Below are positions 15,301-15,930 of a stretch of DNA of 17,383 nucleotides, piece after piece (within the stretch, counting starts at the first letter, position 1; each line of letters starts with the position of its first letter). The notes beneath the pieces are model-generated. The model was not told the DNA's origin, made no database searches, and was given only the letters and a program-made list of their open reading frames with translations. This DNA is from Escherichia coli (GTDB lineage: Bacteria > Pseudomonadota > Gammaproteobacteria > Enterobacterales > Enterobacteriaceae): assembly GCF_003334255.1 (NCBI RefSeq), contig NZ_QOWU01000075.1, one strand, 5' to 3'. Both the position numbers and the translations under genes were made by a program.

Positions 15301-15847
15301 TGCTTACTCATCAAAAGTAGCGCCAGATTCACTGCTCTTCACGGCAGATGGACGCCACATCGATTCATGGGGAGGAATAAAAAAAACCTTACAATCACTG
15401 TAGAAATTCTTTTATACAGCTAATTGATGTGGTTTTTTACTCCTTTCTATAACCTTTTGTCAACTTTAACAAAAGTTTCTTCACATTAGTTTACATAATA
15501 TCAACACCATTAGCATTTAATGCCCTTTCACCCCAGATCCTTGACGACTCCAGGATAATTAGATGTTGTTGAATCGTGTCCGTTGTGAAGCAATGGAAAA
15601 AATACGGGTCTATTTTGACAGGAATTTGTGTCGATTCCTCCCCCCAAAAGAGAGTATTTTCTTGATCTGTGACACGCTTTTGTCATTCCATAACAAAAAC
15701 GCAGCAACAAATTTACGTATTTTTTAACATCATTGTAGCAGGTGATTTTTTTCAGGCGATTATTTGTGCGTTCGGGACGTGAATCTCTGGTGGTTGAAAA
15801 ATGAACAGTTTTGTACGTTCTGCACTATGCGATGAAGGATTTTTACT
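15301..15847 (-). promoter_or_regulatory. nuo operon promoter and regulatory region (long AT-rich leader/upstream region)
   Basis: About 550 bp AT-rich non-coding DNA directly upstream of nuoA. In E. coli this region carries the nuo promoters and sites for global regulators (ArcA, NarL, FNR, IHF, Fis, by established knowledge). I did not map exact -10/-35 hexamers. Small palindromes are visible at 15621..15638 (ggaat-N8-attcc) and 15670..15685 (tgaca-N6-tgtca). Confidence 0.6.
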
Positions 15848-15894
15848 AAAAAAAAGCCGCTGGGGTTTAAAACACCCCCAGCGGCTCGTTTTTT
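15848..15894. terminator. Bidirectional rho-independent terminator downstream of lrhA
   Basis: Perfect 10-bp stem (15856..15865 gccgctgggg pairs with 15876..15885 ccccagcggc) with 10-nt loop, flanked by an A8 run (15848..15855) on one side and T6 (15889..15894) on the other. This gives a U-tract on either strand. About 45 bp past the lrhA stop. Confidence 0.8.
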
Positions 15895-15930
15895 ACACTA
15901 TTGTCTCAGGAATTATCTATCGTCCGTCGA

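Follow-up and report, generated by a model that had tools for sequence, protein, structure and literature searches.

The interval between lrhA and nuoA is the ordinary, already characterised control region of the nuo operon, and we are confident that it is best explained as a composite region of four stages, all read on the minus strand. In the first stage, transcripts of lrhA would meet a canonical Rho-independent terminator (15847-15895). The second would be about 110 bp of unconstrained filler DNA. The third would be a module of about 300 bp (15732-15430), whose near-invariant blocks at fixed distances could dock response regulators and nucleoid proteins; these proteins would tune a sigma-70 promoter of the form TTGACA-N18-TAAAAA, with transcription starting from 15428/15425. 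In the fourth stage, a leader of 128 nt would fold into a 5' stem-loop, a pyrimidine tract, a second, covarying stem-loop and a U-rich tract. This tract would end 10-14 nt before the start codon, adjoining the pairing site of RyhB. Coordinates refer to the window, the whole stretch of 17,383 nucleotides of Escherichia coli DNA that was analysed.

Both neighbouring genes, nuoA (14857..15300) and lrhA (15931..16869), lie on the minus strand and are separated by 630 bp. Positions 15281-15950 are 100% identical to E. coli K-12 MG1655, hence the interval is the published lrhA-nuoA intergenic region; adding 2389772 to a window position gives its K-12 v3 coordinate. A previous reading made from the sequence only had recognised it as the E. 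coli nuo control region and as AT-rich, and both points were borne out, the first by this alignment and the second by a G+C content of 37.7% (15301-15847) vs 55.5% in the nuo operon. Of 5426 complete E. coli genomes, 5424 contain the interval, lrhA and nuoA are the only genes annotated there, and the gap between them measures 623-634 bp in most genera. Sequence, flanking genes, ArcA sites and the reported set of regulators are all the same as in the nuoA-N regulatory region of K-12 (Bongaerts et al. 1995; Wackwitz et al. 1999; Park et al. 2013; Kim et al. 2018), and we found no difference between the two. What the present analysis adds to that region is a map of its conservation across genera and the finding that its small dyads are not conserved. 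The role of the region is already established: it sets the amount of the proton-pumping complex I in enterics, with oxygen, nitrate, carbon source, growth phase, envelope stress and iron as inputs.

We considered whether the interval might hide a small gene and rejected this candidate. On either strand the longest stop-free stretches move and change length from one species to the next, none of the open reading frames in the interval is syntenic across species, and changes of +/-1 in the spacing of conserved blocks also speak against coding. Two small open reading frames in the leader, of 9 and 18 codons, lose their start or their frame in other genera. No Rfam family reached its gathering threshold in a scan of the interval, which returned only sub-threshold chance matches on the terminator.

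The hairpin downstream of lrhA is an intrinsic (Rho-independent) terminator, placed to end the transcripts of that gene (15847..15895, minus strand). It begins about 40 nt past the lrhA stop codon, on the strand of the gene upstream. Its G+C-rich stem of 12 bp, in which GAGCCGCUGGGG (15876-15887) pairs with CCCCAGCGGCUU (15854-15865), encloses a loop of 10 nt (15866-15875) and is flanked by a run of A (15889-15895) and, directly after the stem, by eight U (15848-15855); the whole inverted repeat spans 15848-15865 and 15876-15893. The predicted fold has an energy of -28.9 kcal/mol (z -5.5), and none of 200 shuffled sequences was equally stable. A simple terminator scanner missed the hairpin because its loop limit is 8 nt. 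When we searched other Enterobacteriaceae for a hairpin of -9 kcal/mol or stronger with a U tract, located 35-55 nt beyond the stop codon of lrhA, we found an equivalent in 75 of 81 species, among 78 distinct sequences, such that the structure is kept despite the drift of the sequence. The fold energy, the shuffles and this conservation bear out the strong terminator that had been proposed at 15848..15894 between lrhA and nuo. In vivo it would end lrhA transcripts at the U tract; the Term-seq tables of Adams 2021, which cover three conditions and dominant ends only, hold no lrhA 3' end there (15845-15855). The end that they list as primary for lrhA lies at 15900..15901 on the minus strand (2405672/2405673 in supplementary file 1), just 5' of the hairpin. 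Expression of lrhA may be low, with 11 TSS-seq reads at its start.

This hairpin had also been called bidirectional, which holds for its symmetric shape and not for its function. No gene points toward it from the other side, as lrhA and nuoA share the minus strand, and we found no convergent transcription ending at this one hairpin. It resembles other symmetric A-run/U-run terminators in its G+C-rich stem, the eight U after it, the A run before it and its position about 40 nt past a stop codon, but differs from them in lacking a known convergent gene or plus-strand transcript, and only one of its directions has an evident job. It could still work in both, stopping antisense RNA that runs on the plus strand from the nuo promoter region toward lrhA. 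On the plus strand, too, the RNA of the hairpin has a strong fold (-25.5 kcal/mol, z -6.0), with UCGUUUUUU after it, and the pairing of the A run with the U run is kept in most species. An upstream A run is, however, a common trait of efficient one-way terminators too. Moreover, the plus-strand U run is set off from the stem by 3 nt, a simple scan of the interval found no promoter-like sites on the plus strand, and the gene-assigned table of transcription start sites has no plus-strand start between nuoA and lrhA. We consider such a working bidirectional terminator unlikely.

Conserved blocks lie beyond this terminator. We profiled conservation as identity to E. coli per 15-nt bin in 80 other species of Enterobacteriaceae. 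The spacer from the terminator to the regulatory module (15735..15846) is poorly conserved, with a mean identity of 0.26-0.43 per bin. Then follow blocks that hardly change. One of them, (A)TTAACAAAAGCGTGTCNCAGATCAAGAAAATACTCC (15648..15686, minus strand), has a conservation of 0.77-0.95, contains an invariant GATC (15664-15667), and keeps an identical distance to the neighbouring blocks in 80-81 of 81 sequences. The next (15610..15645, minus strand) is a two-part invariant block made of GGGGGAGGAATC, six hypervariable nucleotides and AAWTCCTGTCAAAATAG; its flanks are conserved around a variable middle, and the block-to-block distance of 21 nt is fixed in 80/80 species. Further downstream, the block 15410-15494 is nearly invariant in the 80 species. 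Across these species the spacing of the upstream blocks is exact or within 1 bp, and in the leader the distances differ by as much as 9 nt. The real constraint on the region is this array of blocks at fixed spacing over about 300 bp, conserved across at least 80 species of Enterobacteriaceae.

The upstream blocks might in principle act as RNA, in a long leader transcribed from an upstream promoter, and not as DNA sites. Published numbering implies an older start near 15561, and a perfect complement of 10 nt joins two of the conserved blocks, GGGGAGGAAT (15634-15643) and AUUCCUCCCC (15369-15378). Yet the blocks at 15610-15732 are upstream of every reported start, we saw no covariation in them, and ArcA ChIP-seq places protein on the upstream DNA. 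Their spacers are free in sequence and fixed in length, which fits the geometry of protein-DNA complexes. We regard an RNA role of these blocks as very improbable, and favour the view that they act as DNA.

Two small palindromes in these blocks had been singled out as candidate binding sites for proteins. Both exist at the coordinates that were reported for them: GGAAT-N8-ATTCC at 15621-15638, with the fuller form AGGAAT/ATTCCT at 15620-15639, and TGACA-N6-TGTCA at 15670-15685. Their interpretation did not survive the comparison with relatives. In the palindrome 15670-15685, the left arm TGACA is peculiar to E. coli: all 80 other species, including E. albertii, have TAACA there. The opposite arm varies between species in its last base. 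In the palindrome 15621-15638, Citrobacter and Salmonella have GGCAT in one arm and no compensating change in the other, and the repeat is shifted in most genera, which have AAATCC, not AATTCC. A conserved dyad was not seen at either place in the 80 other Enterobacteriaceae.

Taken singly, the two palindromes are also no more symmetric than chance allows. The interval holds 20 perfect inverted repeats (arms of 5 or more, gap of 10 or less), and dinucleotide shuffles give 9.6 +/- 4.1. Short inverted repeats are therefore enriched about 2-fold across the interval as a whole (p ~0.02), but about 10 with 5-bp arms arise in each shuffled interval. One would expect a palindromic operator to keep its dyad across species and to exceed chance in its symmetry, and neither property was found in either palindrome. 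The two mapped ArcA sites overlap neither of them; one of these sites, 15687-15729, begins 2 bp past the end of the palindrome 15670-15685. The palindromes are thus both outside these mapped sites and not conserved as dyads. That they are operators for dimeric transcription factors is consistent with their location in near-invariant blocks that keep their distances in 80/80 species, with the 2-fold richness of the interval in short inverted repeats, and with the layout at 15620-15639, where conserved arms flank a hypervariable 6-nt centre of fixed length, as is typical of two half-sites. Still, the arms are broken or shifted in relatives without compensation, and neither dyad fits the FNR or the CRP consensus, so that we hold operators to be decidedly improbable here. 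What the species share is the asymmetric sequence around the palindromes, at its fixed spacing; the symmetry itself is not conserved. The palindromes would be incidental features of the E. coli version of two conserved blocks, not operators themselves, and they should not be annotated as such.

Which proteins could occupy the module? ArcA can be placed at two positions from published data. The motif sequences of both ArcA ChIP-seq regions of Park 2013 (PMC3798270) map exactly to 15477-15507, the proximal site (nuoA1), and to 15687-15729, the distal site (nuoA2), both on the minus strand; at these sites occupancy in vivo coincides with a direct-repeat motif for phosphorylated ArcA. The distal site comprises three direct-repeat elements and has the motif sequence TGTTAAAAAATACGTAAATTTGTTGCTGCGTTTTTGTTATGGA; GATGTTAAAAAA and TGTTGCTG are near-invariant in the 80 species. 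Cra, CpxR and Fis would be placed by motif and literature; NarL, FNR, IHF and CRP are reported in the literature and received no position here. These assignments are candidates, and they do not extend to the two blocks that contain the palindromes. A Cra (FruR)-like site, TGAATCGTGTCC (15570..15581, plus strand), matches TGAAWCGWTTCA at 10 of 12 positions, has a conservation of 1.0 in the 80 species, and lies inside an invariant block (15564-15583). The string TGAATCG occurs twice in the interval, with 0.1 occurrences expected. Cra binds upstream of nuo in ChIP-exo experiments and activates the operon on acetate (PMC5888115), and the motif together with this literature makes 15570-15581 a candidate Cra site. 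A CpxR-like box, GTAAACTAATGTGAA (15480-15494), overlaps the proximal ArcA site, with one mismatch to the consensus GTAAA-N5-GTAAA and a conservation of 0.87; direct binding of CpxR to the nuo promoter has been reported (PMC8831704). The conserved GGGCATTAAATGCTA (15511..15525, minus strand; conservation 0.8), one mismatch from the Fis consensus and containing the palindrome GCATTAAATGC, is a putative Fis-like site. Fis is reported to bind upstream of nuo (Wackwitz 1999; Zhang 2004). Within the same element, at 15525, lies a 3' end from Term-seq.

The sequence-only reading had assigned control of this region to ArcA, NarL, FNR, IHF and Fis. ArcA stands with its two ChIP-seq sites, and regulation by Fis, NarL and FNR is found in the literature (PMC1805755 cites the last two), but the FNR and IHF consensus sequences occur in the interval at chance level. 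Motifs were searched by consensus scans of the interval. For FNR (TTGAT-N4-ATCAA) the best match had 3 mismatches, with 14 matches vs 10.5 in shuffles. The CRP consensus (TGTGA-N6-TCACA) likewise gave a best match with 3 mismatches, and 8 matches vs 6.2 in shuffles, and the IHF consensus WATCAANNNNTTR gave none at up to 1 mismatch vs 1.4 expected. Consensus scans for PdhR and Lrp also stayed at chance level. Regulation of nuo by CRP is in the literature, and Cra, CRP and CpxR are later additions to the set of regulators. The reported effects of FNR and CRP could be indirect, or could be exerted via weak sites. A NarL-type heptamer, TACTCCT, occupies plus-strand positions 15438-15444, in the stretch from the -35 to the -10 hexamer, and overlaps the latter. 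This is an unlikely position for an activator site, and we treat it as a match only.

The module leads to a probable core sigma-70 promoter (15425..15463, minus strand), with a perfect -35 hexamer, TTGACA (15458-15463), a spacer of 18 nt and the -10 hexamer TAAAAA (15434-15439). The -10 hexamer does not end in the usual T, and a simple scanner did not call the promoter, whose two hexamers and spacer length are invariant among the species compared. The TSS-seq data of Kim 2012 place starts at 15428 (4218 reads) and 15425 (1744 reads), 6 and 9 nt past the -10. We take 15428 as the probable main nuo start. The numbering used by Park 2013 and in the RyhB paper (PMC6497325) implies older starts near 15388 and ~15561, and the SMRT-Cappable-seq tables have no nuoA entry.

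Transcripts from this promoter have a leader with two stem-loops. The first, SL1 (15392..15426, minus strand; +3 to +37 of the transcript), was seen in single-sequence folds and is followed by eight U (15379-15386) and the invariant UUCCUCCCC (15369-15377). Its support is moderate: 74% of cells pair vs 27-41% with slid partners, and RNAalifold gave no consensus structure for it. The second, SL2 (15310..15364, minus strand), appears in RNAalifold, with covariation, and in published 3' ends. In its outer helix GUGGCGUC (15351-15358) pairs with GGCGCUAC (15317-15324), and its inner CUGC/GCAG helix and the loop sequence AAGAG are invariant. SL2 covaries, with 98.7% of cells pairing and 45 changed on both sides, vs 16-51% in slid controls; its single-sequence fold is unremarkable (z -1.75). 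The tract UUUUGAU comes after it in E. coli, and a U-rich run in all genera. Term-seq places 3' ends at 15314 and 15310 (2405086/2405082), which Adams 2021 put in the Rho-independent class (intrinsic terminator score 11.6, threshold 3). SL2 therefore unites in a 5' UTR what one expects of a leader terminator, a conserved stem-loop, a U-rich tract and 3' ends at that place, and we infer that these ends come from partial termination at SL2.

The ends lie beside the pairing site of a small RNA. The core of RyhB pairing, AAGCAAUG (15298..15305, minus strand), spans the ribosome-binding site and the nuoA start codon, an ATG at 15300; a second, invariant ATG is at 15294. The sequence that we take to be that of RyhB has 8 nt of complementarity to 15298..15305. 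Compensatory mutations (G86C/C87G) are reported for the pairing of RyhB with nuoA (PMC6497325). This proximity gives weight to another origin of the 3' ends 15310/15314, as decay intermediates left by cleavage of nuo mRNA close to its ribosome-binding site, e.g., after RyhB/Hfq pairing, and by trimming with 3' exonucleases to the foot of SL2. The end at 15310 is the last base of an extended helix (AUCGA/UUGAU) and lies 5 nt upstream of the pairing core, the U tract of SL2 is short and interrupted, and stable 5' fragments with ends adjoining sRNA pairing sites are known (Adams 2021). The Rho-independent class and score given to these ends argue against it, as does the U-rich run kept in all genera. 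Furthermore, the ends were observed in LB, a medium in which induction of RyhB is not expected. We see decay as a serious contender, if somewhat short of an even chance.

Returning to termination at SL2, the invariant inner helix and loop (CAUCUGCC-NNN-AAGAGCAG) and the abundant Rho-independent 3' ends before the start codon lead us to suggest, tentatively, that SL2 is a regulated attenuator not described before, or that it gives rise to a stable leader RNA of ~115-119 nt. This is possible and somewhat doubtful. If true, SL2 would add control of complex I synthesis at the RNA level alongside RyhB. Of the features of this region, only the leader hairpin merits further study; its 3' ends are published but undiscussed. 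It shares with other premature 5' UTR ends found by Term-seq, such as the leader terminator of ispU (Adams et al. 2021), the stem-loop with a U-rich tract, the Rho-independent end and the high score. It differs from these cases in that the nuoA ends appear only in the supplementary tables, the U tract is weaker, and an sRNA pairing site adjoins.

SL2 matches no Rfam family. We also considered its core as a member of a wider motif family and rejected this: a metagenome scan with CATCTGCCNNNAAGAGCAG gave 120 matches, 10 of which are nuoA leaders; the other 110 do not have the flanks of a nuoA leader, and the ones that we inspected are unrelated. When the whole window was scanned with Rfam, the sole match was the nuoG motif (RF01748), at 10401-10443. 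Like SL2, this motif is a conserved enterobacterial hairpin in the nuo operon and a cis element of unknown mechanism, but it differs in sequence and in place, being located between the open reading frames 10446..11783 and 7667..10399.

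An alignment to the K-12 nuo region, which the sequence-only reading had proposed as a check, identifies this locus: positions 15281-15950 of the window match E. coli K-12 MG1655 at 100% identity. Of 5426 complete E. coli genomes, 5424 have a single copy of an 830-bp segment spanning the region, where nuoA and lrhA are the sole annotations. Hence, the lrhA-nuoA region is a textbook locus that reads, on the minus strand, 5' to 3' from lrhA to nuoA. The minus strand carries the entire nuo operon (ORFs from 276 to 15300) and, beyond it, lrhA (15931-16869). Window positions are converted to K-12 coordinates (U00096.3) by adding 2389772, and to the older U00096.2 by adding a further 1978, as confirmed by placing sites of published sequence in the window. 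All features described by the sequence-only reading are present, among them the 630-bp, AT-rich gap (G+C of 37.7% vs 55.5% in the operon). The locus is already known, and its earlier interpretation as a control region with a terminator and multiple regulators is correct in outline and wrong in the detail of the palindromes that it highlighted.

The terminator proposed between lrhA and nuo was found in place. The inverted repeat at 15848-15893 has a 12-bp G+C-rich stem, a 10-nt loop, a run of A before it and eight U after it; it folds at -28.9 kcal/mol, a stability that no shuffle out of 200 reached. A simple terminator scan did not call it solely owing to its loop limit. An equivalent hairpin (-9 kcal/mol or lower) with a U tract occurs in 75 of 81 sequences, beginning 35-55 nt past the lrhA stop. 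These hairpins comprise 78 distinct sequences, whose A and U runs usually lengthen the stem. This retention of structure despite sequence drift strongly supports a role of the hairpin as the lrhA terminator. Its “bidirectional” character concerns shape, with no function shown for it: the RNA of the plus strand likewise forms a stable fold (-25.5 kcal/mol), but both neighbours lie on the minus strand, a promoter scan of the interval gave no plus-strand promoter-like site, and the gene-assigned TSS table has no plus-strand start in it. By Term-seq, Adams et al. 2021 place an lrhA 3' end at 15900/15901 (-), directly before the hairpin, and their tables list none at the U tract in three conditions; processing there together with a threshold for reporting may account for this. 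At the other end of the gene, the lrhA leader is 371 nt long (TSS-seq start at 17240 (-), 11 reads) and contains two Term-seq 3' ends, at 16919 and 17161 (-).

We retrieved the nuoA neighbourhoods of 80 species-level Enterobacteriaceae genomes. lrhA lies upstream of nuoA in all 80, and most genera have 623-634 bp between the two genes. Three species (L014, L060, and L074) have far longer gaps, of 937, 748, and 747 bp, which suggests insertions directly past lrhA. Across the 80 species, the conservation profile shows sharp bands: unconstrained DNA at 15735-15846 is followed by near-invariant blocks at 15719-15732, 15648-15686, 15610-15645, 15564-15583, and 15505-15528, by an almost invariant stretch of 85 bp at 15410-15494, and by a nuoA leader that is conserved for the most part. 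In essentially all species, neighbouring upstream blocks keep the same spacing to within 1 bp, whereas spacing within the transcribed leader differs by up to 9 nt. This difference in the alignment points to the block array as the signature of a fixed-geometry protein-DNA assembly. A GATC (Dam methylation) site at 15664-15667, within the block 15648-15686, is invariant in 80 of 80 species. A hidden gene was considered and rejected, as neither strand has a syntenic open reading frame.

The two palindromes singled out as likely protein-binding sites exist at 15620-15639 (reported as 15621-15638) and 15670-15685, but did not hold up in that role: the dyads are not conserved, do not singly exceed chance, and fall outside the mappable ArcA sites, the second stopping 2 bp short of one. 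Inverted repeats with arms of 5 bp separated by up to 10 nt number 20 in the interval vs 9.6 +/- 4.1 in dinucleotide shuffles; the region as a whole is mildly enriched (p about 0.02), and no individual repeat is conspicuous. The repeat TGACA-N6-TGTCA (15670-15685) reads ATTAACAAAAGCGTGTC[A/T/G]CAG in all other species, E. albertii included, so that its left arm is an E. coli novelty and the final base of its right arm is variable. At 15620-15639, AGGA and TCCT flank six hypervariable bases and keep a distance of 12 nt; the complete arms are disrupted in Citrobacter and Salmonella (GGCAT) without any change to compensate, and AAATCC is the form in most genera. These arm changes across species indicate that selection keeps asymmetric flanking blocks and their spacing, not symmetry. 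Neither the consensus scans nor the published maps consulted assigned a protein to the palindrome-bearing blocks.

Control by several regulators, the other part of that proposal, stands in outline: ArcA sites are mapped and NarL, FNR, and Fis appear in the literature, but FNR and IHF consensus matches are no better than chance. For ArcA, Park et al. 2013 (PMC3798270) give two ChIP-seq regions with called motifs, which we located at 15477-15507 (GTGTTGATATTATGTAAACTAATGTGAAGAA) and 15687-15729 (TGTTAAAAAATACGTAAATTTGTTGCTGCGTTTTTGTTATGGA). Cra binds upstream of nuo by ChIP-exo and activates on acetate (PMC5888115), nuoA is among the activated targets of CRP by genomic SELEX and reporter data (PMC3105977), direct binding of CpxR to the nuo promoter is stated in PMC8831704, and nuo regulation by NarL and FNR is cited in PMC1805755. 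The titles of Wackwitz 1999 and Zhang 2004 name upstream binding of Fis. Consensus scans controlled with shuffles gave an invariant Cra-like TGAATCGTGTCC (15570-15581), a CpxR-like GTAAACTAATGTGAA (15480-15494), a Fis-like GGGCATTAAATGCTA (15511-15525), and a NarL-type heptamer (15438-15444); the Cra half-site TGAATCG occurs twice in the interval vs 0.1 expected. In the same scans, FNR, CRP, and IHF had no match above chance in the interval. A Term-seq 3' end at 15525 (-) (LB, OD 0.4) lies beside the conserved GGGCATTAAATGCTA, some 100 nt before the main nuoA start.

In the TSS-seq data of Kim et al. 2012 (PMC3415461), nuoA transcription starts at 15428, with 4218 reads, and at 15425, with 1744 reads. 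TAAAAA (15434-15439) lies 6 and 9 nt upstream of them, with a perfect TTGACA (15458-15463) 18 bp above it, all within the invariant stretch. Two older starts, one near 15388 and one at about 15561, are implied by the numbering in Park et al. (PMC3798270) and in the RyhB study (PMC6497325). Since 15388 is directly 3' of the foot (15392) of the first leader stem-loop, SL1, this position could mark a processed end or a stop of reverse transcriptase. A second E. coli core-promoter haplotype (15455-15545; 255-345 in the compared sequence L082), which differs from K-12 by about 15% across 91 bp and is similar to E. albertii, is present in 1022 of 5426 complete genomes, E2348/69 and ST131 among them. 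Its changes affect the CpxR/ArcA box and the GCATTAAATGC element as well as, in the -10 hexamer, base 15434.

Counted from 15428, the leader begins with SL1 (15392-15426), moderately supported by folds and pair counts: 74% of cells pair vs 27-41% in slid controls, and RNAalifold gave no consensus structure for it. The leader also has a pyrimidine tract, U8 and then invariant UUCCUCCCC. The second stem-loop, SL2 (15317-15358, extendable to 15310-15364), is supported by covariation. Its outer 8-bp helix covaries (GC to AU, CG to UA, and UA to CG, each in 13-19 sequences), its inner CUGC/GCAG helix and part of its loop are invariant, and 98.7% of cells pair vs 16-51% with partners slid. It matches no Rfam family. 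In a metagenome scan, its invariant core gave 120 hits, of which ten are nuoA leaders; the other 110 do not have the flanks of that leader, and those inspected proved unrelated. In Adams et al. 2021, positions 15314 and 15310 are listed as 3' ends of very high abundance that are not Rho-dependent and have an intrinsic terminator score of 11.6 (threshold 3); the text of that paper does not discuss nuo. A U-rich tract follows SL2 in every genus, and the RyhB pairing core AAGCAAUG (15298-15305; PMC6497325) begins 5 nt beyond the end at 15310. The two ends could be those of cleaved mRNA trimmed by an exonuclease back to the SL2 hairpin; we consider partial intrinsic termination at SL2 slightly more likely. 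This conserved hairpin, with its undiscussed 3' ends, is the only element of the region that might reward further work.

A perfect 10-nt complement joins two near-invariant elements 255 nt apart, AUUCCUCCCC in the leader (15369-15378) and GGGGAGGAAT in an upstream block (15634-15643). Pairing within one RNA was rejected because all reported starts lie downstream of 15634-15643. The leader's small upstream ORFs were also rejected, their start or frame not being kept across genera. In E. coli, AGT follows the annotated nuoA ATG (15300, -), where most genera have CGT, and the ATG itself is TTG in some Kluyvera; a second ATG (15294, -) is invariant, and the K. pneumoniae annotation is 84 nt shorter. 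The choice of NuoA start codon, 15300 vs 15294, may deserve a check. Within the operon, the nuoG RNA motif (RF01748), a known conserved hairpin, was found by Rfam at 10401-10443 (-) with 50.3 bits, between the ORFs 10446..11783 and 7667..10399.
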